From Psammoneis japonica (Eukaryota): DNA of 64,000 nucleotides. This document shows positions 1-38,625 of this stretch, one piece after another (position 1 is the first letter of the stretch; the number at the start of each line of letters is the position of its first letter). The translations under genes and the position numbers were made by a program. The notes below the pieces were generated by a model. The model worked only from the letters and a program-made list of their open reading frames with translations, was not told where the DNA came from and ran no database searches. The DNA is taken from assembly GCA_008632985.1 (NCBI GenBank), contig QPGO01000054.1:62001-126000 (forward strand), in the 5' to 3' direction.

Positions 1-299
1 GATGTTGTTGAAGTTCCGAATGGATCGTTTGATCCGAAAGTGGTGCTACGTAATCACGACCCGACCGCAACGCAACGCGACGTCAAATTTCTGGATTCTG
101 GATTCTGATGGATCCTCGTTCCTCGTTCGCAAACTGAAAACCGGCACCTTACTACTGCATATCTTCTATCTTCTGCCTTCACAGTCTCTTATTGTACCGT
201 TACAAAAGTTATCTCGAAAGAGTTTCACATTGAAGCGGTTGTTTCACGTCATCGTGATTGCCTTTTCGGTGTGTTTTGTCTTTGAAAGATCTTTCCAGA

Positions 300-2411: not shown

Positions 2412-2727
2412 TCAATTGCTTTTCCGGACGTGAATGAAAAGAACAATGCAATCTGTTAAGTGACCGCTTCTACTTCTAGGTGAGTGGTCACGATTGTCAT
2501 TGATCCCGAGGAACCATACAAATTCGATCTAGCTACCTATCCACGAAGCGATACAGAAGTACAGTAATAGGTGGCAAGTATATGCTTCCGCCATCGCGTG
2601 CACCTTGCATATATGTTTTTTGTCTGATAAAGTACCGAGTTTACTCTTCACTGTTGTGTTTCTATTTCCTTATTATCACTAGGTACTTTATGCGTTTAAA
2701 CTCGCTAACTCTAGAATTTGCGTGCAA

Positions 2728-3893
2728 TTACGTCATTGTTGACGTCTCAATAGTGCACACTTGGTTATCTTTGCCGTACTTTGAGGCCACTGTCAGTGCG
2801 ACAAAATTCACAGCTTCAATAGCAGCGTCTTGGTGTTTCGTCATGTCGCTCTCTAGAAGATCAAGTCTCCTCTTTGCTTGAAGGTACCGGTTAGCGGACA
2901 GCTTTCCAACTGTATCGAGTGCTTCAAGCGAAACTAACTCTTGTTTTGCAAGCCTCTCTTTCCATATCGAGTTCTGCATTCGAAGGTCCTCCAAGTCCCG
3001 TTCACAAGTGGCTAAATCAGCCTGAGTCGCAACAAGGGTATTCTTCAACTCCAGAATATCATCCCTACCCTCTTGTGATTCGTTTTGCAACAAGCCCATT
3101 TCCGTTTCTCTCTTGTATAGGCTGACTTGACAACTATCGGTCTCCTTCATCTCCAGTCTTAGTTCCTCTCGCAATCTCAAAAGTTCATTTCGCAAGTCTT
3201 CGTTGGACTCCTTGTGGCTTGCAGTCTCTTCCTTCAGTAACTGTTGTGTTCTTGATATTTCACGTTGAGCTTCTTGCCATTGCCGCTGATAATTTTGACA
3301 CTGAGGAGAGAGCCGATGCGCCATCAAGACCCAAAGTCCGGCATTGCAAGTACAAGCAGCATTGCGCTAAACACAAATAATGCACGCCAACGAAATCCAG
3401 CTGAAGACGGCCGCGATTGATTAGGACATGGCGGTATTTCCTCTGAATAGAGTTGATGCGCCTTTCTGCCGTTTTTGTCGACTCCGACGCTTCTTCTGGT
3501 ATTTGTAGCTGCTAATTCATTCACGCAACATTCTTCCGAGACAACTCTGCTGGAAAGGCTTCTCGGTTGCAACAGACTATTGTCAGCGACGTTTGATTTG
3601 TTAGAAATCACAGGAGGAGCCAGAATATCTGACGATGCTGTTTCAGAAGGCGTTGTAATTTGTGGATGAATATCTCGCACATGCGATTCGGTAGAAACAA
3701 CAGCAAGTGCATTGGAGGAGGGAGGTGGCGCTTCAAACTCTTGTACATTTGCCTCCGGTGTGTCTCGCTTCGAGACGGCTCGTGATTGAGACTTCGATAG
3801 GACATGTTCTTTGCATACGGAAGACGAGGTCCGTGGTCTCTTGGGCAACTTGGCGTTGCCGTCAGAGGGTTGCAAGTGTCGCTTGGGTGACAT
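2728..3893 (-). CDS. Hypothetical protein: disordered N-terminus, one TM helix, C-terminal coiled coil; frameshift near 3325
   Basis: ORFs 3324-4001 and 2728-3327 abut in different frames with no intron-sized gap; TM WRALFVFSAMLLVLAM followed by heptad-rich sequence. Confidence 0.55.
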
Positions 3894-7099: not shown

Positions 7100-7515
7100 G
7101 AAGACGTCCCCCAGGGTGGAGAGAAAAAGGGTGGGCCGAGGGTAGGGACAGACGGTTGAGAGGAAGAGTTGGCAGGTGACAGCAGGGTGGCTGAGGAGAA
7201 CAGCTTGACACGTAGAAAGATGGGTGGAGAGAGCAAAGCCTAAGTTAAGACTGAGGATTTGAGAGGCCCAGAGCAAGGGGGATGAAGTGTGGTGTGAGGA
7301 GCCGAAGAGGTCTTGAGAGAGTTGTTTCCAGGCCGCGTTGGAGTTGGCAAGGAGATCGGAGGGTGCGCGAAGAGTGAGTTGGTGAAGGCGGAGAAGGATG
7401 CTTGAGAGCTGGAAAAGGAGGAGGGCTTGTCCAGGGTGGTTGGGAGGAAGGGGTGGGATGGGATGGAGGAGGATGTTGTGGGACAAGTCAGCAGGTGGAT
7501 GCGGAAGTTTCATGT
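7100..7515 (-). mobile_element. Possible 3' fragment of a non-LTR retroelement ORF
   Basis: Strong purine/pyrimidine strand skew unlike neighbouring genes; Leu/Ser/Pro-rich frame (LLANSNAAWK...WASQILSLNLGFALSTHL); sits at the edge of a TpA-depleted domain. Family assignment rests on recollection only. Confidence 0.25.
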
Positions 7516-7534
7516 TGACATCCAGAGTGAATGC

Positions 7535-8700
7535 TCATCTGTCCAATGCTTGTGGCACCTCCTTGAGACAACCTTGTGGGAGCAGCTGTTGCTCTGCCTC
7601 TGTGATCAAAACAGTCTCAACTGTGGTGCCATCTTCTTGCTCAGGTGGAGGGGATGACAAGAGCGCATGACTGAGGGTCAAACTGGGATTGGCTGGTGTC
7701 TCCTTGTTGGCAATGCAGACGGCACCTTTCAAGAAAAACAGAAACATGATGAGCGACTGCGAAAGAGGAAGTTGGAGCTTGGGCACAACATGGTGCATGT
7801 GCAAGACTGCTGGTGCTCGTTCACTCTCTTTGATTCCTCCAACTGCTGCTCTGACACCTTGATTTTTGTGTCTCTTTTGGCAAGTTGCACATGGAGTCGT
7901 TTGCATTCTAAATTCCAACTCGAGTTGCTGGATCTTGCGGGCATTGGAATTGTCAGTGCTCTTTTCAGTTGCGGAAGGTTTTGCATTTGCTCCACATCAA
8001 GGTTCAGGGCCTCTGTTGTTTGCAGTGTGCCCTCGACCATCTGGAGGGACACTTTGCTGCTCAAACTCTGTGGCTGCAGCTGTCTTGGCTTTGGTGGGTG
8101 GAAGGTGGGACAAGAGTGCACGGTGGAAACTCTTGTTGCGTTGCTCATGCATCTTGCCTGTGAAGAGTTTCACTGTGATGCTTTTGCCATGGTGTTTTTC
8201 TTGACATGCAATGGCACACTCCATGGCTGCGGCTGCCATGTCCTCCAAACACAAGAATTCGTCCCCGGTCTTGGTGACTCAAAAAGATGAGAGGCAACAG
8301 ATCGAGTCTTTTAACTGCTCGGCAAAGATTCTCCTTTGGGGTCCGGCTCGCATCAACCAATGCATTGACTGCCTCTCCAAGTTGACATTTGATAACATGC
8401 TTGCCATTGTGGCAGCACTCCTTGCGATGTACGCTTTCGGTGACAGCCGCGACGAGATGTGCGATCTCGCGTGTCATTGGTGTGCCTTTTGCTTGCGTGC
8501 AGCTGAAAATGACTCCCACAAACTCATCTGTTGAGCATGATAGCATGGTGCTCGTTCCTGCTGCTATTCTAAAATGCTGATACGTCACCATGATGCTGTT
8601 ACGGTTTGAGCGACTCACGACTTGCTCGGCTCGGCTTCGATGATCGGCTCTCCGACTCTTTGACGCTTTGCTCTCGGCAGGTGGTGCAGGGCAGTGCAAA
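7535..8700 (-). pseudogene. Degenerate gene or TE-gene remnant, TpA-depleted
   Basis: Successive broken frames (8145-8699, 7997-8254, 7729-8148) that are almost Tyr-free and Cys/His-rich; only one TpA seen in 7501-7920 while several CpG remain. Confidence 0.6.
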
Positions 8701-20093: not shown

Positions 20094-20955
20094 CTATTAC
20101 TCTAGTAGAGAGCATTTCCTTTTCACTGTGGTCACGTGCGCCTGCAGCAAAGTAGCAGCTCGCTTGTGGTTGGACAAAGCACTCGCTTCTCCCAACCCAG
20201 AGCTGGACAGTAGTGCCAAAGGTAGGAAAGGTCGGAGCATTGTCTTTGCTTTTCAAAGCAATGATGGGAGAAGACACAAGAACTTTTCTGGCGCGACCGA
20301 CATCTCTCTAGATCTCTGGAGTGTACTCCCTAGACGGTATCCTCCTCCCACCACGTCGTACATTGACCATACCAAGGTGTCTTAGTCCTTATCGGTACAC
20401 TTTCGCTTTCATAGCGGTGTCCTGTGACGAGATGCATCGGAAGCCTCCTTGAAAAGTTCCCGGAAGAGCTTCTCAAGAAGATCACCAAGGCGCAGCGCTG
20501 TGGTGTGAACGGGCGTCTTATAAAACTCGGCCAAAGTCGTCCGTGACGATACTACTGGGATGTATCTTGGAGCGTCCGACTTTAGGGAAGATTATTGGTT
20601 TCAGTTCAATCGCGTTCGTGCTTGTGTGAAACCGGCAAACTACTCAATTTTCAGGGAGAAGAAGCCGAGTTGTCATCCCAATGAAGGCAGCAGAGTGAAG
20701 AACATATTCGTAAATGAGCATAATGTGGCTGGATGGAATGATCTTGTCAATTCTTGGTCAATTGTATTCTTTCTGATCAAGCCCCTCCTGCACTCAAACG
20801 CGACCTTGCTAATCTTGCCCTTTTAGAACTCAATCATGATCATACGGACCTCAACCACTGCCATGTTCTCTTGATGCTAGATAGTTGCTTTCCTTCATCA
20901 CAACTGCAAGCCCGTCTTCTTGGGTATAAATCACATTGAACATCCTATCAGCTAA

Positions 20956-21764
20956 TCAAAGAATCCCAGAGAAGCAGTCCATGTTGACATCAATTTTCCC
21001 GCCGGATGCTACAAGAGAGTCTACCAGGGTTTCCTGATCTTCAACCAAAAGAAAGAAGTCATCTCTTTGCTCATCGCGGCTCTTTTTCATTTCTTCGATG
21101 AGGGTTTTGGCATGATTCGGCCTACAAACAAACGGATATGCACCTGGAAAGCCCGGGTCAAAAATGCAACATCCCACCAGCTCGTTCTTATCAGAGCTGC
21201 GTAACTGCAGCGGTATCCGGTTACCAAGCTCCCGAGCCTCCAAAAATACTCCAGGGAACAGTCCTAACGAAGATTCGATTTCTGCTTCTTCCTCTGGCAT
21301 CACGGGTCTACACTCTGTCAGCCCTTCTGATGATGACAGCGTGCTCAAAATGTCCCATGTCAAATGTACTTCTGCTGCACCAAAACAGCGCTTCAGTCCA
21401 AACTTATGATACAATGCTACCGCTGCTTTGTTTTCGGGTACCACATGCAATCTCCAGCGACTGCATTGACGTGCCTTGAATTCCTTGACGACTGCATTCA
21501 GCAAGGCTGTGGCCACACCACGCCGCCTGTAACTCGCATCGACCATGAGATATTTCACTTGACCCTCTTCTGACCCAGTCGCTGCCCACCACCAAGTGTA
21601 TCCAATGGTTTTGTCGTCTAATTCCGCCACGAGGCTTGTAGGCATCATCTCCCTTGTCCAGCGCTCCAACCGTGGGGGCGGATTCGGATCGTCGAGCACG
21701 AGCCAAAGAGCCGCAACGTCAGCGTAGTCCTTCTGAGTTGCACTGCGAATGTGAAGCGCCATCA
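20956..21764 (-). CDS. GNAT family N-acetyltransferase, intronless
   Basis: Acetyl-CoA motif LMVDASYRRRGVATALL and LHVVPENKAAVALYHKFG; second domain FDPGFPGAYPF. Confidence 0.9.
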
Positions 21765-22266
21765 TTAGCGAGGTTATTGTCAAAAACGATAAGGAGAACA
21801 TGCATTGGAGAGGGATTTACGTGTCATTCCTCTCGCTTTTGCGTTGTTGTTATTGTTGTTTGTGTTGTTTCTTCTAAAACAGCAGAACCCGGAAACCATT
21901 CTCACAACATTATTTTGAACTCGCAACAGCGATGGGGTCACAACAATCGCAAATGAAACAAACAGATCTTCAAACGCTGTGGGACGTGGAGAATGCAGCT
22001 GATTAAGATGGGCCAGTGACCCAAAGGCTCATTGGGCCTGTTGGAGCTCAGACATGAGACGCTCAAAGAGCCGCTCAAGCGGTGTGAAGCACCTTGCAAA
22101 ACCTTTGCAAAAAAGGCTGCCCTCACCTCACCTTGGTCCTGGATGTCAGCAGGCATTCAGCATGCACTCAAAAAAATGCAGAGGCTGGCCCTCACATCAG
22201 AGAGGTAAGAAAGAGTGCATGAAATGCAGGCCACTGTTTGGCACTTTTGCACAGTGAGCACACTCT

Positions 22267-22677
22267 CTAATTCATTCTCATGTGGGCGCCCACCACTGCT
22301 GACTGAAATGCATTTCGCTCATTGGCAGTTGATCTTTTTTGTTTGTTGTTTCCACTTTCTTTTGGCGTGCACATGACTGTGCCCCAGGACCAAATTGTTT
22401 TGTTTTTTGGGTCTTGACTCAAGCACAACAACAGCTGTGACTGCCCGGCATCATTTTGTTCAAATGAAGACAGAGTTTCATTTGATTGTTGCCACACAGA
22501 CATTTTTCCATCAAGGAATTTTTCAAAATCATCATTGAATGTTGGCATGCTCGTTTGTCAGCCAGGGAGGGCAATGTCCAGAGCAAAGTAACCAGAAGAA
22601 AGCCACTTGGTCCATTGCATGAAACAACTTGTGTCACAGTTTTTTTGTCCTTGTTGTGAGACTTCCATTTGAATTTC
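22267..22677 (-). pseudogene. 3' part of a degenerate gene interrupted by the copia element (5' part at 28461 to about 29000)
   Basis: Removing the element joins two copies of an approximately 148-bp coding repeat (KFKWKSHNKDKKTVTQVVSCNGPSGF and KFVRKSHRNDKKTIVAQVTAHNGPSEF). Confidence 0.6.
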
Positions 22678-23010
22678 AGTTGAACCAGCAAATCAATGTC
22701 ACCAAACAGAAATCCCACCAGGCTTTCTGTGCTGCTTGTTGCACTTGCCTTGGTTTCTATGTCAGCTGCAGGTTGCCTGTGGTGCTGCAAAGCTTCTAAA
22801 CTGATGGTGCAAATGAGCACGCACCTGTCAACACTGAATGACAAATCTTGTGAACCAAATGATTCAATCCAAAGAGTGAGAACAAAATGAAAAACAAGGG
22901 TTGGAGATCAATGATGGTTCATTCTTGTTGAAGATCATTGTCATTCTTTACAACATCAGGACTCACCCACACATGTCGGAATTCCCTTTTTGACATCACA
23001 AACAGGATGC
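22678..23010 (-). repeat. 3' LTR of the copia element
   Basis: Aligns to 28117-28460 (tgtgctgcttgttgcacttgc, ggttgcctgtggtgc, ctgaatgacaaat, gatcaatgatggt); preceded on the minus strand by the purine-rich gacaggagtg. Confidence 0.85.
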
Positions 23011-26000
23011 ACTCCTGTCATCCTTTTGATTCTTAATTGCCTGTGATGGCTTGCTTAAACTTTCAGAACTTCTTGCCCTGCAACGGCTTTGTCATGAAGT
23101 CTCCAAACATGCCATCAGTTGGACAACACTGTGCTCTCAGGTTGCCCTTCTTTGCTTGATCAGCAATGAAGAAATGCCAAATGTTGAGTGTCCCAGACTG
23201 TTTCCCAGCACTCTTGCACCCATCAGTTGCCAGCAGTGTGGCACTTTTGTTGTCCTGACATGGGACATTCTTGTCAATTGGACAACCCTGGTGTTCCACA
23301 AACAACTTGCTCCTGAACTCCAGCTGGCTCAGCTTCTGTGCTGCTTTGGGCATTGAGCTCCTGTTGTTTGAACATTGTCTGTGCCCCTCCATCACCCATG
23401 GTCACAACTCCCCCTGTGCAGCTTTTAAAGTCCAGGTTCACCGCAAATGATGTGTCCACATGCCACTTGACAACTTGGAGGTCCTTTGCACTTAAAAAGT
23501 GGCAACTTCATTCCTTGTCCAGTTCAAACATTTGACACAACAGACTGGTTTCCCCCAATCCTTGTTGGTGAGTTCACTCACTTGCAATTGTGCTGCAGCA
23601 GCAGTTGGGTGCACATCTGTGTGGCCTCTCTTGGAAACAAACAGTCACTTGGCCACCCCTCTGTGGAAGGGTTGTGCTTTCTTCTTGGTCAGCAGTTGCA
23701 TGCTGCCAGTGTCAAACAGGTTCTCTGCAGCTGGCATCGTGGCAACATCCACACTCTTGATCTTCTCTGGGAACTTGTTGATCATCTTCTTGACACAGCC
23801 ACTCATGTCAACCTTCATTTTGCCCTTTGCACTGAAATCCAGGGTCATCCCCAGGCAGTTGTGCCTCTTTCCTTGAACAACAATGACCTCATTGTGGCTT
23901 CTGCACATCTTGTTGAGCCAGCTCAAGAATTTGTCATTGACCTTTGGGTTCCTGTGGCTTGACAACAGGTTGTCCACATGGAAATGAATCATGTGCTGTT
24001 TTCCATTGACATTTCCATTGGCAATGCAAGGATCACACAGGTTGAACTTAAGCCCAATTTTCTCCAAGTCTTTGCAGAATTGCTTGCACCACAGCAGAGC
24101 CATGACTGACATGCCACATGAGTCCCATGCAGCCCTGATGACTTGGACATGAAGGATGACTCTCTTCCCTTCTCCAGCCAGGACCACACATGGTCCATGT
24201 GGGTTGAAATCAATGCTCACAAGCATGTCAACCAACACTCCTGCAATCTTCATCATGATCTGGTCTTTGCCCTCCTTGGCAGGCTTTGGGATCAAAGTCT
24301 GCACAAATGTGTTGGGTGCATCAGTGTGCTCATTGTGTCATGCCCTTCTGCACCAGCATCAACGTAGGCTGTTGTTGGTGTTCCCTCTGGTTGTGACACC
24401 ATTGGGCTGGCTCAGTTGTCTTTGTCCAGCCATTGTCTTGTTGGTTTCTCATTGTGAACCTTTTGACCTCTTCTGCGACCATCTTGCTTCTCCACAAGGA
24501 ACACAAGAGCTGCCACAGCCCTTTTCCTCTCAGTCAGATTCACATCTTTAACTGACATTGGTGCAAAGCACACACTCTGTCATGGAATTGTCCAATCTCT
24601 TTTTCTGAGGCATCATGCCCTTTCTGGCCAAATGCTTTTGGACCTTTGTGCAGCAAATGCTTCTGGGCAAAGGAAACACCCTTTCCTGATTGGAGCTGGT
24701 CATTGATCTTGCACATGAACTGTGCCATTGTCATTTCCACATTTGAGTTGTGTTCCATGTCCTTTGGGTTTGGACTCATGTTTGTTCACAAATGGTGGCA
24801 GCACTCAAGTTCACTCCATTTACACTCCTCTTCAGTGGTGTTTGCCACTCCTGCAAACCAAACCTTTTTCTTCTTGTTGTTTGCCTGCAGGTGTGCTGGT
24901 GTGCCACAGCATTGCCAGAGGATCTGCCACTTCTGGTCCTCTTGGGTTCATCTTCTGATTTGTCTTCATCTTGGGAATCACCATGTCTTGCAACTCATCA
25001 CTGTCCTTTTTTGCTTCAGTGTCATCATCATCATGACAATTGCTTTTGGCTTTTGTGCTCTCATGCTCCTGTTGATTGGGTCTGGACCTTCCATTTGTGA
25101 GAATCTCACTCACTTCCTCACATTCATTGTCTGGGTTTTCTTCTTCATGATCTTAGTCATCAGAGTTTTGTCCTCATTTTCTTCCTCACTGTTGTTGCTG
25201 TCACTGTCATTGCCCATGTTGTCTGCTCCTGCAGTCCAATCAGCATTGCACATGTTGTCTCCACATTTGCCTGTAGATTTAAAATCTTTGATGCCTTGTT
25301 TGGTGATGCCATCTTCTTGACCACTTGTGCATGTGTGTTGGCAAGGGGTGCAGCAGTGCACTTGCAAGGGCTCAGGAGTTTCTTCATGTGCAGGTTTGTG
25401 GCGCAGCATCTGCTCTTTGGATTGTCAAAGTGTGGTTGCAGATGAACACTGACAGTGCCTCATGTGTCCATTGTGTTCATTGGATCTTTCCAGGCATGAG
25501 ACAGGACAAGAAATTCTCCAAAGGAAAACCAAAAGTGTTTGTTGCAGTTGAGGTTTCTGCATTGTGTGGTGGTGTGTGGGCTGTTTGAGTGTCAGCAATT
25601 TCTTCCTTTTGTAAGTGCATGTCAGTCATGACAGTGTTCTTGATTGCAGCATGCTTGTTGCACATTAACTTGGGTGATGCCTTGTGTGGTGGGTGGTGTG
25701 CAGTGGCTTGAATTTGCTCCTTGATGGTTTTGATGCTCTGCTCAACTTTCAAGCACAGTCCTTGGCATTTGTGCCAAAACATGGCCCTTGGTGTTTGCAG
25801 AAATCAACTCCAGATTCATGCCATCAGCAACTCTTCCCACAGCACCTCCTTTAACTTGGAATTGCACTCAACAAAATTGATCTTGAACAAAGCCATGTTG
25901 TGCTGTCACAAAATTGCATCCAGGGCACAGCACACATTGTCGTGCCACTTGGACTTCAGTTTCATGCTTGATTGGCATTTGACCGTCCAAGCAATCATGC

Positions 26001-28116
26001 GTGTGCTTCAATTTAACTTTGCATGCTTCCATGATGTCGATGCAGAGCATCATGCCCTCTCTTTGCCACTTGCAAATCTCCAGAGGAGTCACAATCATGA
26101 TGTTCCTCTCATGGGAATGATGTGCTTGTTTGATCTTGCCTTTCAAGGCATCCACTGGTTGGCTCCACATGGCCACCATCTTGTCCATGAAGTCTTTGGG
26201 TGCAAAGGACAAGTTCTTCTTCACCTGAGTGGATCACAAAAATTGCTTGAAGTCCCTCACACTTGGAATTTCAGCCTCATGATGCAGTCTGAGCATGTGC
26301 TCAGCATTTGCCACCTCCCTCTTGCAGCAGCCTGTGGTGGCACTTTGATCCATGGTCAGAACTGTGGTTCCTGATGCACTCCTGTGCTCCTTCTTCTTCT
26401 TCTTCTTCTTCTTCTGTTTCAACAGCATGCTTGCGTGAGACTCTTTCTCTTGAAACTCGTTGACACAGTCAAAAAAACTTCTCATTGGGTCTGAAAGCAC
26501 ACAGCCTGATGTCAACGATCTTGACTTGCCAGTCTTCTCATCCAGCAGGCAGAACTCATCTGAAGCTTGGTTGTTGCATGTGATGCAGCGCTTTTTTCTT
26601 CATGTCCTTCAAACTCAGGACATTTGCTGTTGCATTCTCTGACCCAAGCTTTGTGTCTCCCCATGATGGAATGGCACAGTCTTTGTCCAGTGCATCCACT
26701 CCTGCATTTGTGGGCAGATGATTGTTGTTCTTTGCCGGTTGCACAGTGTGCACAAACCTCCAGCTTGCTGCCATGCTGAGGGTCAATCATTGTTGAGGAT
26801 GATCTCATCCATCTTGATGTCCATGTTGGCTTGTGCCATGCTTGTTTCTGGTTGCTCACTTGTGAGTTGCAGCTTGTGCCATGCAGCACATCTGTTTCTG
26901 GCAGAACAGCTTGGTCTGTTGGATGTTGTGGTGTTGATGCTTGCACTGTCACCATCCACGAGTCTGTGCATGACTGTGTCCCCTGATGTCCAGCTTCTGT
27001 CCTGTGTCCTGAAACCAATTGTTCTGCAATGTGTCACCTTTGTGCAAGCAGCTTGGGGACTTGTGGCATGGCTCTGGTCTTTGCTGTTGCTGTTGTCATT
27101 GTTGCCATCCTCCTTCTTTTTGCCCTTTTTGTTGCTGTTTCTTGTCCTGATGCAGCTGTCCTTTGGATGGCTCAGCAATGCATTCGCAGCTGTCTCCAAG
27201 GTCTTTGGGCAGGAGGCATCCTTGTCTGGACTGCAGTCCCTCACAAAGCTCTTCTTGAGGCCCTTGCAACAATGACTGTTGCTGTGCTCTGAGAACAGGT
27301 GTGTCATCCACTTCTTGCATGCCTCATCCTTTCGCTGTCTCTGAGTGTCAGGATTTGCTTCTTGTTGTTGTTTTGTGTTGGCAATGAACCCATCAAACAT
27401 TTTCTTTCCCTGGCCTTTGCTCACAGCATCCTGCCAGTTCTTGAACCTTGACAAACAGTCATCACCTGTTCTTTTGTTCTCTTGCTGCCTCACATCCAGG
27501 AGGTTCTTCAGTGACTTGGTCAGCATGTGGAATGGATGACAACCTCTCATCGAGTCAAATGTCAGGGTCTGAATTGGCCTCAGCAGCTCAATCAGATTGT
27601 CCCTCAGTGCAGGACAGGCTGGATCATGTTGCACTTGTTGTCTCATTTGCCTGGAACAACAGTCATCCCATGTTGTGAAGAATGCAACAGTCTTGTTCTC
27701 TTTGAACTGCACAATCTTCTTGCGGCAATCATGCAATTCCTCCATGGTGCACCTCCACTCTGGCTCCTTGTTTTTGCACTCACACTGTTTTGGCAAGCTT
27801 TGGCAATTGGCGCCTCCTGGACCTGGTGCTGTCTTCTGGGACATCTTCAGAGTGGGTTTCTAGCAGTTGAAGTCCTTGCATTTTGTGTCCTCCAGTGATC
27901 TTGCCAGATGGACTCCTTGCTCATTTTCCTTCTGCATGTGTCAAATGATCCATTCAACATTGAAGGATGGAACTTCAGCTCAGGCTGAGAGCACTTCTTG
28001 TTGTTGGGACTGTCTGACCTGTGGCTCTTGTCATCTCTGTCTTGGCTGCCAACTTGGCCAGATTGCTTGCCACTCCCTCTGCCACTCATGGCACAGGAGA
28101 TCTCAGGGGAAGTGAA

Positions 28117-28460
28117 TGTTAAACCAGCAAGTCGGTGTTGCCAAAAGGGAATCCTTGCTGGGCTTCATGTGCTGCTTGTTGCACTTGCTGCCTTGGCTTC
28201 TGCATTGGCTTTGGGTTGCCTGTGGTGCCAATGTAAAACCTCTAAACTGACAACACAACAGGCACCTGTTGATGCTGAATGACAAATTGCGCAAACCAAC
28301 AAATGGCTCACTTGAAAGAGCAAAAACAAAACAAAAAACAAAGGCAGGGGGATCAATGATGGTGCACTCTTGTCAAAGATCATCATCATTCTTTGCTGTG
28401 CCAGGATTCAAAATTTCTTTTCTTCAACACTTCCAGGTCCCACATCTGGGTGTCCCAACA
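28117..28460 (-). repeat. 5' LTR of the copia element
   Basis: Canonical TGTT...AACA termini (tgttaaacc...cccaaca), immediately upstream of gag start MSGRGSG at 28089. Confidence 0.88.
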
Positions 28461-29049
28461 ATTTCACCCTGTCAACTTTTTCTCTCCTCCCTTGGCAAAG
28501 TCCAATGCAGTGTCAGTGGGCAGCCACAAATTCACTTGGTCCATTGTGTGCTGTGACTTGTGCCACAATTGTTTTTTTGTCATTTCTGTGAGACTTTCTC
28601 ACAAATTTCACCTCATCAATTTCTGCTTTCTTTGTTTTGACTGATGTCGACAGGGTGAGATTTGTGTGCACACCCCACAGGTGAGGAGAGGGCTGGAGGT
28701 GGCCATGGGGAATTCTCCTGAGCACCTTGTGGCTCCCTTTCTCAGTTCAAGAATGGCAGCAGATGGAGAGGAAAAAGTGTCAGACCCCTTTTCCAGCAAT
28801 TTTGAAGACTTTGCTGGTGATGAAAAAGAACAAGAGGCCATCTCTTCTCACTGATCACAGCACAGTGCAGGGAGAATGGAGCTGCTGCTGGCAATGACTC
28901 TCTTTGCAAACAATGAGCAGAAGGTGGCTGTGATGTCACCAGAAAAAATTGCACTTGTGTCACTCTCAAATGCAGTCACAAACAACTGAAATGTTTTTGC
29001 AACTTGGGGGGGGTGCAATTTTGAATCCACACAACTTTTTTCAGGTCAA

Positions 29050-32000
29050 GAGAAAACACAAAACAAGGAGGCCAACTTGCAACAATGCAAAGCAGCACCA
29101 CAGCATGTCACACACAACACAAAAGTTGTGAGAAAACACAGCAATTGCAGCTCAGAGACAGACCAGTCTCTGAGTGAGCAGACGCCGATGATGACAAGGT
29201 TGGCAGAGACATTGTCAAGGGTGAGAGACCACATCAAAGAAAAAGAGCCTCTCTGAGCATCACACTCACATTTGATGCAAAGCAATTTGAGGAAACAGGC
29301 ATGCTGTGTGAAGACAAAATTTGCTGCAAGTGTCATTGAGCAAGATGGAAAACCAACTCCCACATCTTGCTGTTTCTCATGATGCAGGGGTGCAAGAAGA
29401 CAAAGAAGCAAGAACTCTCTGCTCTGAGGCCAACAGATGTTGCAAGCAAGCTTGAGAGCATCATCAACAAGGGTTTCATGGAAACAGAAGTTGTCATGAA
29501 GAAGGGAAAGTGTGCAAGACACTCAAGCACTTTGCAGCAAGCAACTGGAACCCAGCAGAGGAAGACACAGGCAGAAGATGATGCAAAATGCCAAGGAAGA
29601 GCAAGGGATGGTTGATGAGAGCCAACAAGTTCTTCTGCAAGCTGTTCATGGAAATCAAACAAGACATTGCTTCAAGTGAATGACTGCTCCTCTGCTGACA
29701 GGAAGATTTGCACAAAAGAGCTGCAGCCAACTGTTGAAAGCAAACAGGAAAAGAGCTTGATGACTTGGGTGGTGAAGGAGACCACATGACAAGCTGCACC
29801 AAGATCTGTGAACTGGAGCCAGTGGTGGCAGTTTTGCAGACAAAAACCCACAAGCAGAATTTTTTTCATTGTTCAACATGAGATTCCAAGGCAACGCTCC
29901 ACTCCAGAAACTGCACTTTAGACAGCAACCATCAAGTTGAACATTTTGGGGGTGCAAACTTGGTGAGTTTTGCTGCACACTGACTGGGTTGACAAGATCT
30001 TGATTTGAAATCATGCACTCACACTCACACACCTTTTCTTGGACTGCAGTCCACTTTTCTTGGACTGCAGTCCACTCATCAGTCAGGGGGGGGGGGAGAT
30101 TCCCAAATTTGCCCCCCCCCGATGCCATGCAGTGGCTTCAGCCAATGCTCAGCAGACAACACAAACACTCAAAAAGTGCACTGGTCAGCAACACAACAAC
30201 TGCTCTTTGGGCATGCACAAGCATTTTGCAAATGCAAAAAGCAAAGTTCTTGCTGGCTGTTGTGGCAAATGTCCCCATTGGAAGCACGGGCTGCTTCTTC
30301 AACAGGCAGCCACCATTTTACATCAAGCTTGCTTCCAAAGACATGTGCAGTCAAATGCATGTGTGGAGAAAAGCCACCAAGAACCCAAGCCTTCAAATTT
30401 GCAAGGCAATCATGTGTGGATGATGTTCAATGACTGAACTCCAGCAGATTTGGCTTGCAACAAGAGCAAAACAATCAACTTGCGCACCTTTGGCAAAGAG
30501 CTGAAGTGGCCACATCAACAAAGATGATGATGTGTTCTTTTTCAAAAACATCAATGGAGATTTTTGTGAGCTCCATGCAACAACAACAAGCAAAGTGATT
30601 CAGAAACCCACATTGTTCCTGTGGTGTTTGCCATTTCAAAATTTTTGAGAATGGCGGGGGGAAACCAGCAGCGGTGTTTCGCTCTCACATTTGTGTGGCT
30701 TTTGCAAACCCCAATGCAGTGCATCAGTTGATTTGGCACAGTGCAAGCTCCAAACTCCAAGATTTCTTTTCCTCCAACCTTCATGCACCTCACTGCATTG
30801 TTGCATCATGTGTCACCCCCCTCACACACCCACAATGGCAGAAAAAACCACAAAGCCCACCATCACTGCAGTTGCATCACACAATGTCACAGTTTGGGAT
30901 GATTGGGCTCAATCAATTCCATGGCTGCACATTTGTGAAATTAACAGAGAGGGCTTTGACCACCAAAAGCAAATGCTGAGTCAGAATTTGACCACAGCAG
31001 CACACAAAAAGCAGAAAAAGAGCCCAGAAGGAATTGGAAGCAGCACATGAAGCACATCCTTTGCAAGACACAAGCAACAAAAAATCAACACAGCAGTGGC
31101 TGTTTGAGACTTCTGAATTGTACAAAATGGCAGCCTTTGGTGCATGCATTGGCAAAGCATGTTTTGCAGGGCACAATGCAATTGACAAGCTTTTTTGTGG
31201 TGGCTTTTTTGGTGGACATTGTGATGCAAGTTCTGCACAAAGCTGCCCAAGGCATGCGTGGTGCACAGCTTGTCATGGAAATGGCTTTTTTTTTAAGAAA
31301 TGGCAAGAAGAATCAGAGTGCATGTGAGCCATCCTCTTTTGCATTGCAAACACATTGGCACACCTTTCCTCTTGTTCAAAATGCTGTCTGTCTCATTTGG
31401 CGCCTTTTTTGGAATGGCACAAATGTGGATTGTGTGTTGCAATGGATCCTGGCACTCCAGCTGAGATTTGTTTAGCCTGAATGGCATCCATGGCCGGGGA
31501 TGACAATGTCTTGGCTGGCACTTTGTCCATCCTTGCCCTGTGCTGGTGTGCACATTGCTGAGTTTTGTCCTTCGCTGAAGACATTTGGAGATGTGCAACG
31601 TCTTTCTTTGGTTGCCAACTGTTGTGCAGTTTAATTCTAGCCTCACTCTTCACCCACTGCTGCTGTTCATCTCCAATCACAGTCAGCATCTTCATGCAAG
31701 AAATGGACAAGCAGTGGTGCAGTGGTTGGCAAGCTGCAGAGAGATTTGATCCATGAACTGCTTTGTGTCCGATTCCAGCACCACTTTGCCCCATGCACAA
31801 GAGAGTGAGGGGATTGGTTTGTCCCATGAAATTGCTGCAGCAGCTGGCAGGGAAGTCATCAGTGAATCCACAATGTTCACATCAAACAGTTGCTGTCATG
31901 CAAGCAACATCACCTCCTGTTCCATCACTGGGACAGGTGAAATTCAATGAGTTGATTGTGCAAAATCAGAGTTGCAAGTCATTTGAGCCACTCACAAATG

Positions 32001-33950
32001 CCAATGATTTTCACAGTTTGGAAGAAAATGAGTTGGCAAAAATGCATGCAAGCATGGCTGGCAGAATTGCAAAACTCTCACAAGCCTTGAAAGAGCCCTT
32101 CATGAAGCAGAAGCAGCCCAATGAGGAGTTGCAACAAGAATTTGAAGCCAGGCTCAACTGCTTTGAGAAACTTCATCTCAAGCAACATCAACAAAATGGC
32201 ACTGAGTCACAACAAGAGTTTGGTGCAAGGAGAAACTTTTTCAAGCACCACAACAATCAACAGCTGGACAGAGAGCAAGAGACAGCATTTTTTTACAAGC
32301 CCTTTGGTTGCCATGCAAGAACACAACAAAATTGCACCAACAAAAATGACCAATCCTGGGGAAGCATGCAAAGCACAAGCAATTCCAAACAGTCGCCATG
32401 ATTTGATGCGTCCAAGGTGCCAACACTGCATCAGATGCCAAGGTGCAATGCCTGCTCTTTTGTGAAAAGTGCAGATGAGACCATTGACCCCAGCCTGCGT
32501 GGGTGCACAACTGCAGAACTGTCCATGGGCAATCAAATCAGAAGACTGTTGTCACCAAAGCAGATGACCTTTTGCAGGTTTTTGGAGGCATTGGTTTTGT
32601 CTGAGGGGCGTGCCTTTTTAGGTGACATCTTAATGGCATTTAGACCAAACAGGTTGCTTGTGGGAAGTGACATGAAAGCATCCATTCCCAGCCTTTCAAA
32701 CAAGTGTGATGCAAAAGCCACAGAAGACTCCTTCAAAGCAGATGAAATGTCAGACTCACAGCACACATGTGCAACTGCAGCTTTTGAAATGATGGTTTTG
32801 AAGACAAGAACTTGACTCAGGAACAATTGCAGTGTGTCTCAAAAAAATTGTGCATGGCCATTGAATCAGGACAAAGCCAATGACGAGGCTGCTGCCCAGG
32901 GCCCCATTGGAAGGTTGTTGCTGGGGCTGACACAATGGCGACACAGGAAGCTGCCATGAGAAAAATGGTTTCCAGCAAAGAGCTCTCTCACTCTGATGAA
33001 ATGCTTGCTTTGGAGTTGCATCAAAAAGTTGTTGCCAGAAAGCACACAAGACCATCAATCAGAAGCAAGCCTTGACCTCAAACATCCCACAAGGGAAAGC
33101 ATCAAGCAATGCAAGGAAAAGCTTTGACACACTGGTTCATTTGCTGCTGAGGCTGCAAGCATGACCCAACAAGAGAGAAAGCCATCTTGAGTTGCTGTTG
33201 ACAATGTGGTGTCCAGCGCAGACTTTGATGTAGACCAGTCTGATGTGCACATCAAGTTGTTGTCAGGGGAGGACATCATGCCCAAAAAAAGGAGTTGTCA
33301 TCACTGGAAATTCAGCACATTGTTGCAGACAGAGGCTTGGAGAAGTCAGAAGAAGTGACGCTTTGGGAAATGACCAAGAGACAAGATCTTGCTCATGAAG
33401 AGACCAAGAGAAAATCAAGGCAGCTGCTGCTTTGCCAGATTTTTGTCTTGAACAATGACTTGCAGCTCAACAGCAAGAAAGCTTTTGTCTGATTGGTGTC
33501 CAGGAGTCAGGATCTTGCTTTGGAAGAGGAGGCTCTTGCCAAGTCTACAAGCCAACAAATTTCATTGAGCAAATGCTTGGCACAAAAAAGAAGCTGCAAT
33601 GCAGAAGGTGGTGTCAGGGGATGCTGTTTCTGATGAGGAAGTCCAGCTGCCTTTTTGGGCATGCCAGAAAATGTCCGAATCCAGATGAAATGTGCTTGGC
33701 AAGTCTCATGTGACAAGAGTGAGAGGTGACAGACATCAAGACAGGAGAGGTTGCTGTGATGATGCTTCAGAAAGTGCAGGCAGGAAAATCAATGAAAGCA
33801 AGAAGGGAGGCCATGCAGAAAATGGTGTGTGGCAAAGAGCTCTCTCAACAGAAGACACTTTAGACAGCTGGTGCAATGCAAGCCACAAACTCTCTCCAAC
33901 ACAAATGCATCCACAAACAAAATGAAGGTTGGGACAGAGTCTGGCTTCAC
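29050..33950 (+). pseudogene. Degenerate coding remnants of unidentified TE(s) or gene(s)
   Basis: Chain of broken plus-strand frames with protein-like composition once some Cys/His are read as Tyr (31034-31327, 31763-32401, 32417-32815). No family motif confidently recognised. Confidence 0.45.
30033..30074. repeat. Exact 21-bp tandem duplication, each copy containing the 14-bp palindrome TGGACTGCAGTCCA
   Basis: cttttcttggactgcagtcca at 30033-30053 and 30054-30074. Confidence 0.95.
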
Positions 33951-34183
33951 CAGTTGCTGTTCTGACAAGGACAAGAGCAAAGAAGAAGACTTCTTTGACC
34001 CCTTTTGAAAACTCAATGTCACTTAAGATCAGGAGAGCAGACTTGGACTTCCAAACTCCTCTGCAGAGTGAGAGGATCCCATGATGGTGTGCCAGCCAAC
34101 CTGACAACCGCAAACTGAGGTCATTGGTGGTGTCTGGTGGACCCCATGTGACAGTTTGAGAACTGTGGCTGGGCATTGCAAGG

Positions 34184-34467
34184 CCCAGTTTCTGCCCACC
34201 ACCAAGGGCATCCAATGGTTTTGTCATCTGGCTCCACCACAAGGTTTGTGGGCATGTCATCATTTCCCTTGTCTGGTGGTGCTCCAGCCATGCTGGGGGC
34301 GGGGTCGGACGGTCGAGGAGCACGAGAGCCAAAGCAAGCTGCAACATCAGTGCAGCCCTTCTGAGTTGCACTGCAAACATGATGAAGTTGGAGAGTGGTT
34401 CACGTGTTGTTGTGATGCTTTTTGACCTCACTGCTGCTCCCTCGTCCGGCAGCCAAACCCGGAAACC
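34184..34467 (-). pseudogene. Truncated, mutated duplicate of the GNAT 5' CDS and upstream region (source 21574-21897)
   Basis: Shared blocks ctgcccaccaccaag, atccaatggttttgtc, ccttctgagttgcactgc, ttggagag, aacccggaaacc in the same order and orientation. Confidence 0.92.
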
Positions 34468-34999
34468 TTGCAAGGTGTGGTTTTGTCGCAGACAATGCTT
34501 TGCCATTTGCCATTGCCCATTGCCAATGGCAGACTCTAGAGCAGGCCCAACGCTGCATCTCGCTCGCGATTGCTCATGATCGCGATGACACAGCACCGCT
34601 TTACCTTGCACTCTAGAGAGTGGACTCTAGAAGCAGCGGGAGCATCCATTGAGGGCTTGCAGTGCACTGATGCAAAGCAACCCATCGCCCTACGAAACCA
34701 TGAGTTCAGCATCATCTACGCTTGTCCGGGGGATGATCCATCGTTGCCATGAAGTCAAGCCTTCCAAAGTGTGAGAAGTGTTTTCGCAAGGACGGCGTGA
34801 CATCTGGGCATCCCAACCCATGTTTCCCGGATTTTTCTTTTCTCCCATGCCCCATGCGAGACTTTGTTCTTGATCCGACCCTTTGCTGTCTCTGCCACTC
34901 TTGCTCCCCTCTTGGGAGAACGAAGCGATGCCATTGCTGCCCGTGTGTTTCGTGTCATGCCAGCACCAGCACGGCTTGTGCACAACAAGAAGGTTGACA

Positions 35000-36090
35000 A
35001 AAAATGACAACAACAAAGACGGAGTGGGAAGCACGGCGAGGAACTCAATCATGCATGTTGTGCCTTCCTCAAAGACTCCAAAGTTCACGCCTCCGTCTGA
35101 CATGCAAAGTGCTTTTGTGGGTGCCATTGCCTTTACGTGCAGCACCATTTCAGATGTTGTGTCGGCTGCCATGATGCCTGAGCAAATGAAAAAAAAGGTT
35201 CGAAGCCATGGCGCGACTCAAAGCTCACCCATTTGGATGCATCTGGTGTGGGAGATGAGCTTGAAGAGGTGAGCCAAGATGTTGCATGGACAACAGAAGC
35301 TGACTCATTCCCGCTTTTTCAATTTTCAGGCCCTCATGAAACCCATGTTGTGAGGGCGTTTGCTTGACAATGTGAAGATCTTGAATGACATCCAGGAGAA
35401 GAATGACGCTGATCATTGCGAGAAGGCTCAGTCTCGCAATGTCAGCAACATTGATGAAGAAGCCAAAGAAGGAAATCGATGCATGAGGTTCGCTGCAGCA
35501 GGCAAGGCGCGCACGCACACAAGTCTTCAATTGTGCTTTTCCAACTTTTGTTTGACTCACTCAACCATCTCCAAAACATCGACATTCCCAGCTTGCACAA
35601 CCGAAATGATTCGGAGCGCCATTGACAAAGAGGTCCATCCAGAAGAATTGCAAGATCAAAAGACGGCGATTGCTCGTCATGCCATGACATCTCCTGAGGA
35701 CGTGAAACTCTTGTGCGCAAAGGACGACAGCAATGACTGCCATGTTCTGCACCACTTTGTAGCTGTGGACACAGAAAACGAGTCAATCGTGTGGTCATTG
35801 CGAGGTGCACCATCAATGTCTGGATCCATCGTGGACATTCAGGGCATGGAATGTGAGTGGCAGGTGTTTCTCATGCTGCGTTCTCACTGCAGGCACAGAA
35901 CGAACCCGGTCATGACAGGCGAAACCTGCAAACAAGGAGTCTCAATGGCCCATGCGCACAGCACGTTCAGTGATCACTTTTACTTTACACCGAGATTGCA
36001 GACTTTTTCGCATCCCGTTGGTTTTCTCAACCGCTCAGGCAACTGCATGAGGCATGCCTGAGCATGGGGCATGGCCAAGATCCCGCCCCC
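35000..36090 (+). pseudogene. Class 3 lipase (DAG-lipase-like) pseudogene
   Basis: CMRFAAAG (cf. YMRFA.AAYG), HFVAVDTENESIVWSLRGAPSMSGSIVD (cf. IVLSIRGT.S..D), GMAKI; no catalytic GHSLG found; stops and frameshifts. Ends approximate. Confidence 0.65.
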
Positions 36091-37787
36091 AGGTGTTCCG
36101 CACCGGCACATTATGACAATCGCGAACAAAACCAGTTTTCTCATCGCCAAGCTGCGTTTCTTCCTGTTGTGAATCGAAGTGGACCAGGCAAAGGCAAGCC
36201 GGAGCACAGCCGCAATTCACTCATCTCTCGTGCAGAGCAATGAGTCCAGATGCCCCGTCGAAACTGGGTGCTGCAGCACCACAGCCGCAGCCGAGAAAGT
36301 TCGACAGCAGGCACTTGTGGAATCATCTTGAAGCTCTTGATCAATGACATCGTTGTGATTTTTCCGGCGCTCGACATGTTCACAGGTTGCGCACCTTTCG
36401 ACAACATCTTTAATTCTCTCCGCTTCATGAAAGACTGCTGAAGACAAGACGTCTACTCGCAAAAGCAACAGTGCGTCGAAAACAGCAGCGACGGCATCAG
36501 AGTGCCGTGCGCGAGAGTTACGACCGTCAACATGGTCCATTGACGTACGTACGGAACAAATGGCATGCAAATAAAGATTGCTGTGCTGCACTTTTAGTCT
36601 TTCCACTTCTCTGTTGTAAAGGTTCAAAGTGTGTTTCGAATGTTTGAAACACGCCAATGTCAAAAGTTGATGGAAATTGGTCGCGTGGGATTACATTGCC
36701 TCAAGAGCACCATCATTAGATGGCGCTCAAGCTTTTTCCTATTTTTGGGGTGGAAAACCACCCCAAAAAAAAGAAAAAGGGGGGACGTGCTGCGGAGACA
36801 GCAAGAGAAACTTGCGAGTCAACCGCGTGCTAAATCAACACTCCCTGCGAGTGAAGACTTGCCGCACCACATCGCTGATGCAACGGAACCCCAAACCCCG
36901 CGTTCCGTCAATGGAACGATCTGCTCAGTGAGCTTTTGCTGCTTCGCAGACGAACGCTGCTGTCTGTTTCAACAGCCGTGACCTGACGGGTCAAGCGAAC
37001 AGGCAACTTCCTGCGGTCAAAGACACAGGAGTGACATGGGCTCCAGGCCGGAGACACACATTTGATTTGCCCTGACCTCCGGACTTAACTGGCAACACCT
37101 GCGCTGCCGATTTCAACAGCACACTTGTGCTGAAGCAACTTTGACAAAAAAAGAGAGACAAACCGCCAGCATTGGAATCAAGCTCAAGGTGAGCTGAGGA
37201 AAAAGAAGGACTCAATCACATCGTGCGGGTTGACAAATTGAAACTGAAGCAGTTCCCTCTTTTTGTCGCTCCTCCGACATCGTCAGTTCCCATCTCGAAT
37301 GATGAAGCGAAAGAGAAGTGCTTGATCCTTCTCCACGGACGGAATGCCAGCCTGAAACAGACGGTGTCGACGCTCCACAGGTGGGGTTCTTTACACTTCT
37401 CTTCACCCATGGCACCATCATCGTTCCCGCACCAATCACTGATGATTCCCTTGCGGCGTTTGTGCGGAGATGAACAGATTTTTGAAAACGGGCGTCGTTT
37501 GAAAATGGAGGGAAATGATGTGGCTGGAAAACCAACGGGTGTGTTTTACTGTCACATTTTGTGTAATTTGTGCGAACCCCTACGACGTCAGCCGAACTTC
37601 AAACAGCGCGAGCTCCGAACTCCAGATTTCCTTGTCTCTCCACTCCACACACACCGCACCGCATATTCCTACTACCGTACTACCCATGGTGGACGGCGTT
37701 CGTCATCATGTCAATGTCGTGCTGAACTTCACCGGTATCATAACATGCTAAAAGCACCCTTAATCATAGGCTGAAGTAGGGATAAGA

Positions 37788-38625
37788 ATGTTTCATCTCA
37801 TGAGATCGTATCGGTGTGGCGGATCAAAAGGTCGGCGATACCGATGGATGACAGGCAGATCGGCATCGAGTCGTCGGCCCAATCCGTTGTTTGTCAATGC
37901 GAGCAACGCCCCGGATGACTTTGATCCATCCGGAGCTGTGGTTTACGACTCCTTTGTATCACATGAAGAAGGAGAATCTCTAGTGTCTGATATAATGGCT
38001 CGAATGCGTCGGTAAGCTACGTGAGCTTCATCCAGAAAAGTGCCTTTTTACTTCCGACACATACACACTCACAACCTACTTCTGTTGATGCAACGCCACT
38101 AGCCGTCGGTACGAAAAGGGACACTGGGATGCAGTCATTACGGACTACAAAGAAGTGGAGCTCTTGGATGAATCCGTACTTGGCGACGCTTCCAGAACTG
38201 CAATGGATCGTGTTCGAGAGCAATTGTTGACCCATCATTTGCCCACTTCCAGAGAAGAAATTACGTTTCTGCCGTGTCACGCGATTGATTTGAAAAAGGA
38301 TGGCGAGCTCAAGGCTCATGTCGACTCTATCAAATTCTCTGGAGATGTCGTTTCCGGAATTAGTCTGCTATCTTCCAGTATTATGAGACTCAGACCAGAA
38401 ACAACGCAACAACGAGGCAATGATTCAGAGGAGCAGTCGGAAGGATGGGTCGACTTGCATCTTCCACCCTTGTCACTCTATGTTTTATCAGGATCGACTC
38501 GATATCATTACACACATGAGCTACTTCCCTCTGGCTCTGTCTTTGAAGCGCCCGACGGAACAACTGCGACGGTTATTCGTGATCAACGACTCAGTGTGAT
38601 TTTTCGTGATGCCAAGGATTCGTAA
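37788..38625 (+). CDS. ALKBH7: AlkB homolog 7-like 2OG-Fe(II) dioxygenase; intron about 38012-38102
   Basis: RRYEKGHWDAVITDYKEVEL; HAIDLKKDGELKAHVDSIKFSG; SLLSSSIMRL; RYHYTHELL; RLSVIFRD. Confidence 0.88.

Follow-up and report, generated by a model that had tools for sequence, protein, structure and literature searches.

Loss of CG and TA dinucleotides from an integrated copia retrotransposon and its surroundings in the diatom Psammoneis japonica

Introduction

The two long terminal repeats (LTRs) of a retrotransposon insertion start out identical, so a CA in one LTR standing opposite a TG in the other needs one change on each strand, in two copies. Such reciprocal differences recur between the LTRs of a copia element in a stretch of the Psammoneis japonica genome (assembly GCA_008632985.1, contig QPGO01000054.1, positions 62,001 to 126,000 of the forward strand). 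This whole stretch of 64,000 nt is referred to below as the window, and is numbered from its first base. The locus raises the question of what altered the element, on which molecule, and when. A preliminary description, made from the bases alone, had proposed mutation after insertion, on both strands and near saturation, at sites that were once CG or TA. Our analysis leads to a similar view, and we are fairly confident that the element and the DNA around it underwent post-integration, two-strand mutation specific to CG and TA. The agents behind the TA and CG losses are matters of graded likelihood, and are weighed in the Discussion.

Results

Reciprocal differences between the LTRs

The element lies on the minus strand and its main parts are as follows.

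22670..22965, minus strand: left LTR (3' LTR in the orientation of the element), 296 nt, with ends TGAAT...ACTCA
28113..28410, minus strand: right LTR (5' LTR in the orientation of the element), 298 nt, with ends TGAAT...ATTCA
22966..28112, minus strand: internal region of the element, 5147 nt, with many stops and frame changes

That these are the two LTRs of one copia insertion, as first described, is borne out by their alignment. They are direct repeats spaced 5443 nt apart, both with TG...CA ends, and their transition-tolerant local alignment scores 368, while nothing elsewhere in the window exceeds 60-63. MAFFT with default scoring returns the same alignment. A purine/pyrimidine (RY)-coded seed search found no further LTR copy in the window, a transition-tolerant alignment agreed, and the window therefore offers no outgroup for the pair.

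Of 287 aligned columns, 218 are identical (75.96%); gaps occupy 20 columns. Transitions account for 59 of the 69 mismatches, with 38 in pyrimidine-purine (YR) steps and 21 elsewhere, and transversions for the other 10. Among 63 aligned YR steps, 40 are concordant (22 TG/TG and 18 CA/CA), six differ on one side, one is TA/TA, and 16 are reciprocal swaps, eight CA/TG and eight TG/CA. Adjacent double transitions thus fall on 16 of 63 YR steps, compared with 5 of 64 RY, 0 of 58 YY and 2 of 75 RR steps. When the differing columns were permuted, YR doubles numbered 2.8 +/- 1.5, and 16 or more arose in none of 5000 permutations. The excess of swaps is therefore real, and the five examples first quoted are all present as written; the claim that the LTRs differ "mainly" by swaps goes too far, since swaps take up 32 of the 69 mismatch positions, or about half, and YR-step transitions altogether take up 38.

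Once differences are classed by context, divergence is plainly context-dependent, with transitions at 30% of YR sites and 13% of other sites. A strand bias common to both LTRs, which would have spoken for a different history, is not seen, the swaps running eight each way. The pair is proof that chromosomal DNA was the substrate, that the changes followed integration, and that both strands were hit.

This pattern also bears on age. Kimura two-parameter (K2P) divergence is 0.313 over all sites and 0.228 over non-YR sites, with transversions at 10 of 287 columns. The warning that LTR dating would be inflated was right in sign, and the effect is modest in size: age would be overestimated by tens of percent on the K2P measure, and the non-YR value may itself be inflated.

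A block nearly devoid of CG and TA

The loss of CG and TA reaches well past the element, and that of TA also past the block in which the two losses coincide.

21932..34181, no strand: block nearly without CG and TA, with base composition and YR total preserved
34200..37400, no strand: adjoining multi-copy stretch with loss of TA only; TA 25 against 191 expected (observed/expected ratio, o/e, 0.13), CG 157 against 208 (0.75)

The element retains 25 CG and 22 TA, against 316 and 384 expected from its base composition, so that the change is near saturation, as had been proposed. Over the whole block, CG numbers 62 against an expected 661 (o/e 0.09) and TA 42 against 875 (o/e 0.05), while the rest of the window stands at 0.97 for CG and 0.57 for TA. 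What was lost appears to have been conserved as CA and TG. These two are near equal in the block (CA 1379-1385, TG 1386-1391) and almost doubled, with o/e of 1.8-1.9, and the total of YR steps, by arithmetic from the dinucleotide table, is preserved at 23.5% against 24.1%. GC content is 46.5% in the block against 48.4%, a drop that approximately matches the loss of some 630 CG and some 415 TA. AA is not depleted (o/e 1.26 in the block against 1.15).

Along the sequence, CA and TG follow one another without order. A runs test gives z = -1.05 for the block and z = -0.39 for the element alone, where CA numbers 599 and TG 725. This strand-run test of block and element found no runs of CA or TG of the kind that processive one-strand mutation events would leave, and each site was therefore resolved independently. 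The two losses are also decoupled in extent: TA loss reaches beyond CG loss, both rightward to 37.4 kb and in a separate island at 7.3-8.3 kb, and two processes are therefore likely.

That second small island (7251-8250) has 1 TA and 21 CG in 1 kb, with an excess of TG, and an RY-coded seed search found no sequence relative of it in the window. In the public sequencing run X1 (described below), the stretch at 34200-37400 is the most repeated part of the region, its summed depth reaching 3700 within 36727-37327. The remnant of a lipase-like pseudogene lies in this stretch (35354-36061), interrupted by an intron-like insert and showing Tyr>Cys where residues are conserved.

The direction of change

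Three comparisons give the changes a polarity, and agree: one through conserved codons of the element's reverse transcriptase (RT), one through a duplicated piece of a host gene for a GNAT acetyltransferase, and one through 79 metagenomic relatives with normal TA, which are described further below.

23045..24755, minus strand: Ty1/copia-type RT/RNase H remnant, with 4 stops and no Tyr codon in 424 codons
34182..34497, no strand: partial duplicate of the GNAT acetyltransferase gene (5' end and upstream sequence), hypermutated; the normal counterpart is 21572-21931

In RT/RNase H, 246 columns are conserved in at least 6 of 10 homologues, and this copy differs at 99 of them. One base change can explain 62 of these differences, while the remaining 37 need at least two. 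More than half of the one-step differences (34 of 62) are CG>CA (10), CG>TG (6), TA>TG (10) or TA>CA (8); the rest are 9 other transitions and 19 transversions. At the residue level Tyr>Cys (7 times), Tyr>His (3), Arg>Gln (4) and Arg>Cys (2) predominate. In the RT codons, A>G or T>C changes fall in TA context 18 times and in all other contexts 5 times; changes in AA context number 3, though AA is much the commonest. The outcome is a copy with no Tyr in 424 aa, where the median among homologues is 3.5% (n = 119).

The GNAT open reading frame (ORF) lies at 20956-21816 on the minus strand, and the duplicated piece, which is all of the gene that recurs, is 320-360 nt long. Compared with its normal counterpart, the copy in the island has CG>CA at 6 sites and CG>TG at 6, with 5 CG kept, and TA>CA at 4 and TA>TG at 3, with no TA kept. 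Reverse changes, from CA or TG to CG or TA, number zero. These counts come from a short and gappy alignment of 297 columns with 82 gap columns. The two GNAT fragments are direct repeats 12.6 kb apart that stand on either side of the entire CG/TA-free block, and only the distal copy is hypermutated.

The direction of change is thus from CG and TA to CA and TG. Polarised RT codons, the mutated GNAT fragment and the evenly divided swaps together uphold the earlier view that mutation was context-specific, followed insertion and struck both strands. The further step of assigning each swap to opposite-strand changes at an ancestral CG or TA agrees with the polarised comparisons, but is not compulsory for a given site: a swap can also come from an ancestral CA or TG by way of a TA or CG intermediate.

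Identity and ends of the element

Judged by its sequence, the segment 22670-28410 is an old, dead Ty1/copia LTR retrotransposon on the minus strand. With its 4 stops masked as X, the RT remnant (23066-24337, minus strand) gives a best phmmer E-value of 1.1e-88 and 5216 matches at E <= 0.001. Matching proteins carry the RVT_2 domain, and some are named Ty1/copia-type RT (Cylindrotheca closterium). Only about 80 nt separate the end of RT/RNase H from the 3' LTR, and about 3.3 kb of the element lies upstream of RT; this leaves no space for a downstream integrase and suggests a copia-like gene order. In full-length homologues RVT_2 is placed C-terminal to at least 900 aa, and one of them has a zinc knuckle at 364-379. 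No integrase was detectable upstream of RT in the element by Pfam or tblastn, and tblastn with five long homologues against the element recovered RT/RNase H alone. Pfam searches of ORFs and all six frames of 22678-28463, 28411-34184 and 34498-37802 returned no transposable element (TE) domain, and inspection of the element by eye found no recognisable primer binding site or polypurine tract. A purine-rich simple tract inside the element (26379-26424) reads on the minus strand as consecutive Lys codons.

The ends of the element are less clear than first described.

22673..22677, no strand: left ATTTC, candidate target site duplication (TSD), adjoining the LTR only on the reading that places the LTR start at 22678
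28413..28417, no strand: right ATTTC, 2 nt past the LTR end at 28410, not an exact TSD

An ATTTC TSD had been reported, and ATTTC does stand on both sides; the match to the LTR ends is inexact, with the right copy 2 nt off, and support for a TSD is weak. The left LTR would start at 22678 if a 4-nt TTCA were counted as flank and not as an indel, and the flanks of the TG...CA ends at 22670 and 28410 are CCATT and AAATT. The end of the element had been placed at 28460, which is 50 nt past the LTR end and has to be corrected to 28410. A diverged direct repeat of about 100 nt also flanks the copia, at 22570-22666, where it abuts the left LTR, and at 28494-28598, where 83 nt separate it from the right LTR. 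The copia thus inserted into DNA that was repetitive beforehand, and a TSD is harder to read for that reason.

Relatives and reads

Metagenomic relatives of the element were taken as the best 80 of 520, giving 79 loci. TA o/e is 0.30-1.04 in all 79. This selection favours intact copies, and the absence of TA-free loci from it is therefore weak evidence on how common the process is. CG loss without TA loss occurs in some of these relatives, for instance L058 (CG 0.18, TA 0.77), L010, L029 and L031; across these four, CG o/e is 0.18-0.35 and TA a normal 0.47-0.77. CpG decay without the TpA process thus exists in other hosts.

At the protein level, 9 of 150 phmmer matches to RT/RNase H are poor in Tyr (P0131, P0137, P0149, P0157, P0184, P0206, P0212, P0229 and P0268), with 0-1 Tyr in 159-541 aa and a raised share of Cys, His, Gln, Trp and Met (16-23% together). 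They carry the protein-level footprint of the same TA and CG loss. As fragments from ENA and Logan contigs they may derive from the same organism, and we do not count them as independent.

Public reads covering the stretch come from one study (runs X1-X3), in which X2 and X3 give little or no cover of the block; no RNA data set was listed as containing it. Logan contigs of X1 match the window exactly at 20500-23008, 24987-25313, 25535-25819 and 32462-32831, with a word depth of 58-76, and the first of these spans the left edge of the island and the left LTR. Summed X1 depth is 130-3700 over 21.7-37.3 kb and 60-75 in the flank at 20.5-21.7 kb, which indicates that the TA-poor domain coincides with multi-copy DNA. 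Between the window and the X1 contigs of other copies there are 462 transitions and 118 transversions, adjacent CA/TG swaps included.

The window as a whole has 48% GC. Its genes indicate a pennate diatom; they include an HSF-type factor, whose best matches (55-58% identity) are from the diatoms Nitzschia, Seminavis, Cylindrotheca, Pseudo-nitzschia and Epithemia, as well as helicase-associated-domain and other proteins.

Discussion

A two-process model

The pattern can be accommodated by two processes acting on the same DNA. After integration, the DNA of the whole island gained dinucleotide-specific transitions on either strand, each site independently of the next. In the first process, CpG would become TpG or CpA through deamination of 5-methylcytosine (5mC) in methylated transposons, and we infer that cytosine methylation is the likely cause of the CG part. 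The second would turn TpA into TpG or CpA, depending on which strand bears the A>G change. TA loss cannot come from cytosine chemistry. The TpA process would act further than CpG decay or faster, the latter because islands that have lost only TA would be the younger ones. Since CG and TA are palindromic, each site would resolve randomly to CA or TG in each copy, and given such random resolution the LTRs should end with swaps at about half of the sites that were once CG or TA. The targeting signal may be the state of the chromatin or the repeat status of the DNA, and the island is probably heterochromatic as well as multi-copy.

So far a single report, a 2026 preprint on the chlorarachniophyte Bigelowiella natans, has described hypermutation of integrated DNA that targets TpA (Mettrop et al., bioRxiv, 2026; 10.64898/2026.01.13.699255). 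Among 231 mutations found there in two integrated viral regions of mutation-accumulation lines, 230 were A>G or T>C and lay without exception on TpA, at a rate of about 6e-7 per site per generation, and an ADAT2-like adenine deaminase was proposed (10.64898/2026.01.13.699255). An ADAT2/3-like or other deaminase, in line with that proposal, is the candidate agent of the TpA process in P. japonica, and from the base changes at hand we would give an adenine deaminase about an even chance of being the cause of the TA part. It is conceivable, and we suggest it tentatively at a little under even chances, that diatoms and B. natans share an old DNA-level defence of the lineage of stramenopiles, alveolates and rhizarians (SAR). 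Such a defence would edit the adenine of 5'-TA-3' on either strand at repeats or heterochromatin, by means of a natural TpA-specific adenine deaminase or its equivalent.

Several observations sit uneasily with this account. Transitions between the LTRs outside YR steps are frequent (21 at 161 sites), which implies either that the element is old or that weaker contexts are mutated as well. Three CA-versus-TG differences in the GNAT-fragment pair misfit a simple one-step model, and A>G changes in that pair extend beyond TpA, occurring at 9 of 17 TA, 11 of 46 AA, 7 of 40 CA and 5 of 39 GA; either the process also acts outside its preferred dinucleotides, then, or ordinary divergence is large. The targets in B. 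natans are single-copy viral insertions, whereas ours are an LTR retrotransposon and gene-derived repeats in a multi-copy island, and CpG, which is lost here too, does not feature in the text of the preprint. Finally, X1 may be the source sample of the assembly, with its platform unrecorded, and so lends no independent support.

Alternative explanations

The strongest competitor keeps a TpA process at the DNA level and dispenses with adenine deamination. A modified thymine in TpA (5-hydroxymethyluracil, 5-formyluracil or a base J-like derivative) could mispair with G, or lesions in a methylated island could be followed by error-prone repair synthesis of the WA>WG type known from DNA polymerase eta (W being A or T). 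From sequence it cannot be told whether A changed to G on one strand or T to C on its complement, and symmetry together with site independence would suit a symmetric mark on a palindromic dinucleotide. The ranking of A>G by preceding base in the small GNAT-fragment set (T>A>C>G) is also in its favour, and a WA-type polymerase would raise AA too. The RT codons speak against it, with 18 changes in TA context and 3 in the far more abundant AA context, as does the undepleted AA of the block (o/e 1.26 against 1.15). We know of no thymine modification of this kind in diatoms, and consider this explanation unlikely.

An artefact of base calling or assembly has to be considered because it would imitate a pattern that is site-independent, symmetric and limited to a domain. 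If CG and TA were modified, the two strands might disagree and the consensus pick CA or TG at random, and the platform of the assembly is unrecorded. The X1 contigs, built from exact 31-mers at a depth of 58-76, nevertheless show zero differences from the window where they span the left LTR and the edge of the block, and the indels, transversions and frameshifts of the island show true age. In another alga, an Illumina-based experiment has also documented this signature as genuine mutation (10.64898/2026.01.13.699255). The X1 reads argue against an artefact in such a way as to make it unlikely rather than excluded, and taking all of this together we regard it as very improbable.

Ordinary 5mCpG decay with neutral drift, the TA loss being incidental, would have the merit of familiarity: diatom TEs are CpG-methylated, according to the accessible portion of PMC2806351, and loss of CG alone is common in relatives (L058, L010, L029). 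Decay of this sort does not account for TA at an o/e of 0.05 against a background of 0.57, with 42 TA left in 12.2 kb, nor for the loss of TA without loss of CG at 34.2-37.4 kb. Neutral drift biased from GC to AT makes TA and does not remove it, and every conserved Tyr codon is gone from RT. We see hardly any prospect for decay by itself.

Editing of RNA or complementary DNA (cDNA) before integration, ADAR-like or APOBEC-like, or errors of reverse transcription would place the changes in the retroelement's own cycle. ADAR favours a 5' U, and hypermutation of retroelements within a single cycle is well known. The LTRs of this one insertion differ at affected sites in both directions (8 versus 8), both polarities run along the element (CA 599, TG 725), and the GNAT fragment and the lipase-like pseudogene, neither of them retroelement DNA, carry the same changes. 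On these grounds the preliminary description's argument against RNA editing and one-cycle RT error holds, and we rate editing as an equally faint prospect. Changes that are symmetric, site-independent and saturating, and found in non-retroelement DNA as well, leave practically no room for RNA editing, a single reverse-transcription cycle or native composition.

The last of these, a family that evolved avoidance of CpG and UpA much as RNA viruses jointly suppress the two, has the slimmest standing of all, in that conserved residues are destroyed and stops and frameshifts left behind, the LTRs differ by swaps, relatives have normal TA (best 80 of 520), and no intact family member of the same composition appears among the 79 loci or 119 word-search matches.

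Implications

Post-integration mutation of CG and TA, should it prove general, would matter for how such genomes are read. LTR-divergence ages, Kimura landscapes and homology-based TE annotation would be systematically wrong in them; Pfam failed completely on this copia element. Joint loss of CG and TA would provide a simple marker of silenced DNA, and diatoms, several of which are gene-editable, would become a system for seeking the responsible enzyme. A literature search of incomplete coverage turned up no report of diatom repeats that have lost TA, whether alone or together with CG.

Comparison with known systems

Hypermutation by ADAR or APOBEC resembles the present case in its deaminase-type transitions with a neighbour preference, which for ADAR is the 5' U preference stated in the Discussion of the B. 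natans preprint (10.64898/2026.01.13.699255). It differs in acting on RNA or single-stranded intermediates with one polarity, whereas the change here is symmetric and followed integration. Single-cycle editing of RNA or cDNA would be expected to give one polarity common to both LTRs; the swaps are eight against eight, and the runs statistic of the element is z = -0.39.

Fungal repeat-induced point mutation (RIP) likewise inactivates repeats by dinucleotide-biased transitions on both strands and inflates LTR divergence. RIP converts CpA to TpA, enriching TA and lowering GC, whereas here TA is removed and GC barely altered. There are also no strand-coordinated runs, and in the live GNAT gene the duplicated part has escaped mutation of this kind. 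We rejected RIP of the fungal type with TA depleted about 10-fold and GC at 46.5% against 48.4%. Diatoms do have a DNA methyltransferase, DNMT4, that the accessible part of PMC9998398 relates to RID.

The decay of TEs at 5mCpG is closer. It too turns CG into TG or CA on either strand, and here such change is confined to the repeat island, with 12 changes in the GNAT fragment and 16 in the RT codons. Methylation of diatom TEs, diatom copia included, lies in CpG context in what is available of PMC2806351. That process leaves TA alone, and CG loss at this locus is less extensive than TA loss.

The nearest parallel is B. natans (Mettrop et al., bioRxiv, 2026), in which, by the available text, DNA of nucleocytoplasmic large DNA viruses (NCLDV) and virophages changes from TpA to TpG or CpA after integration, on both strands, with long-term TA depletion, gain of CA and TG, and clustering of the affected windows. 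TpA-depleted coding sequences there are enriched in TE-type domains such as reverse transcriptase and DDE (10.64898/2026.01.13.699255). In P. japonica as well, A>G and T>C are concentrated on TpA and the action was on integrated DNA after integration. The host is a stramenopile where that one is a chlorarachniophyte, and neither diatoms nor LTR elements are mentioned in the accessible text of the preprint. Weaker A>G outside TpA may occur here, unlike what that text describes for B. natans, and depletion is near total (o/e 0.05), against a Rho of 0.45 reported there for the NCLDV region. The window shows the end state, saturation, of the TpA signature in a second lineage and on targets of another class, and on the tentative view of a shared defence a TpA process and CpG methylation would together remove both palindromic YR steps from invading DNA.

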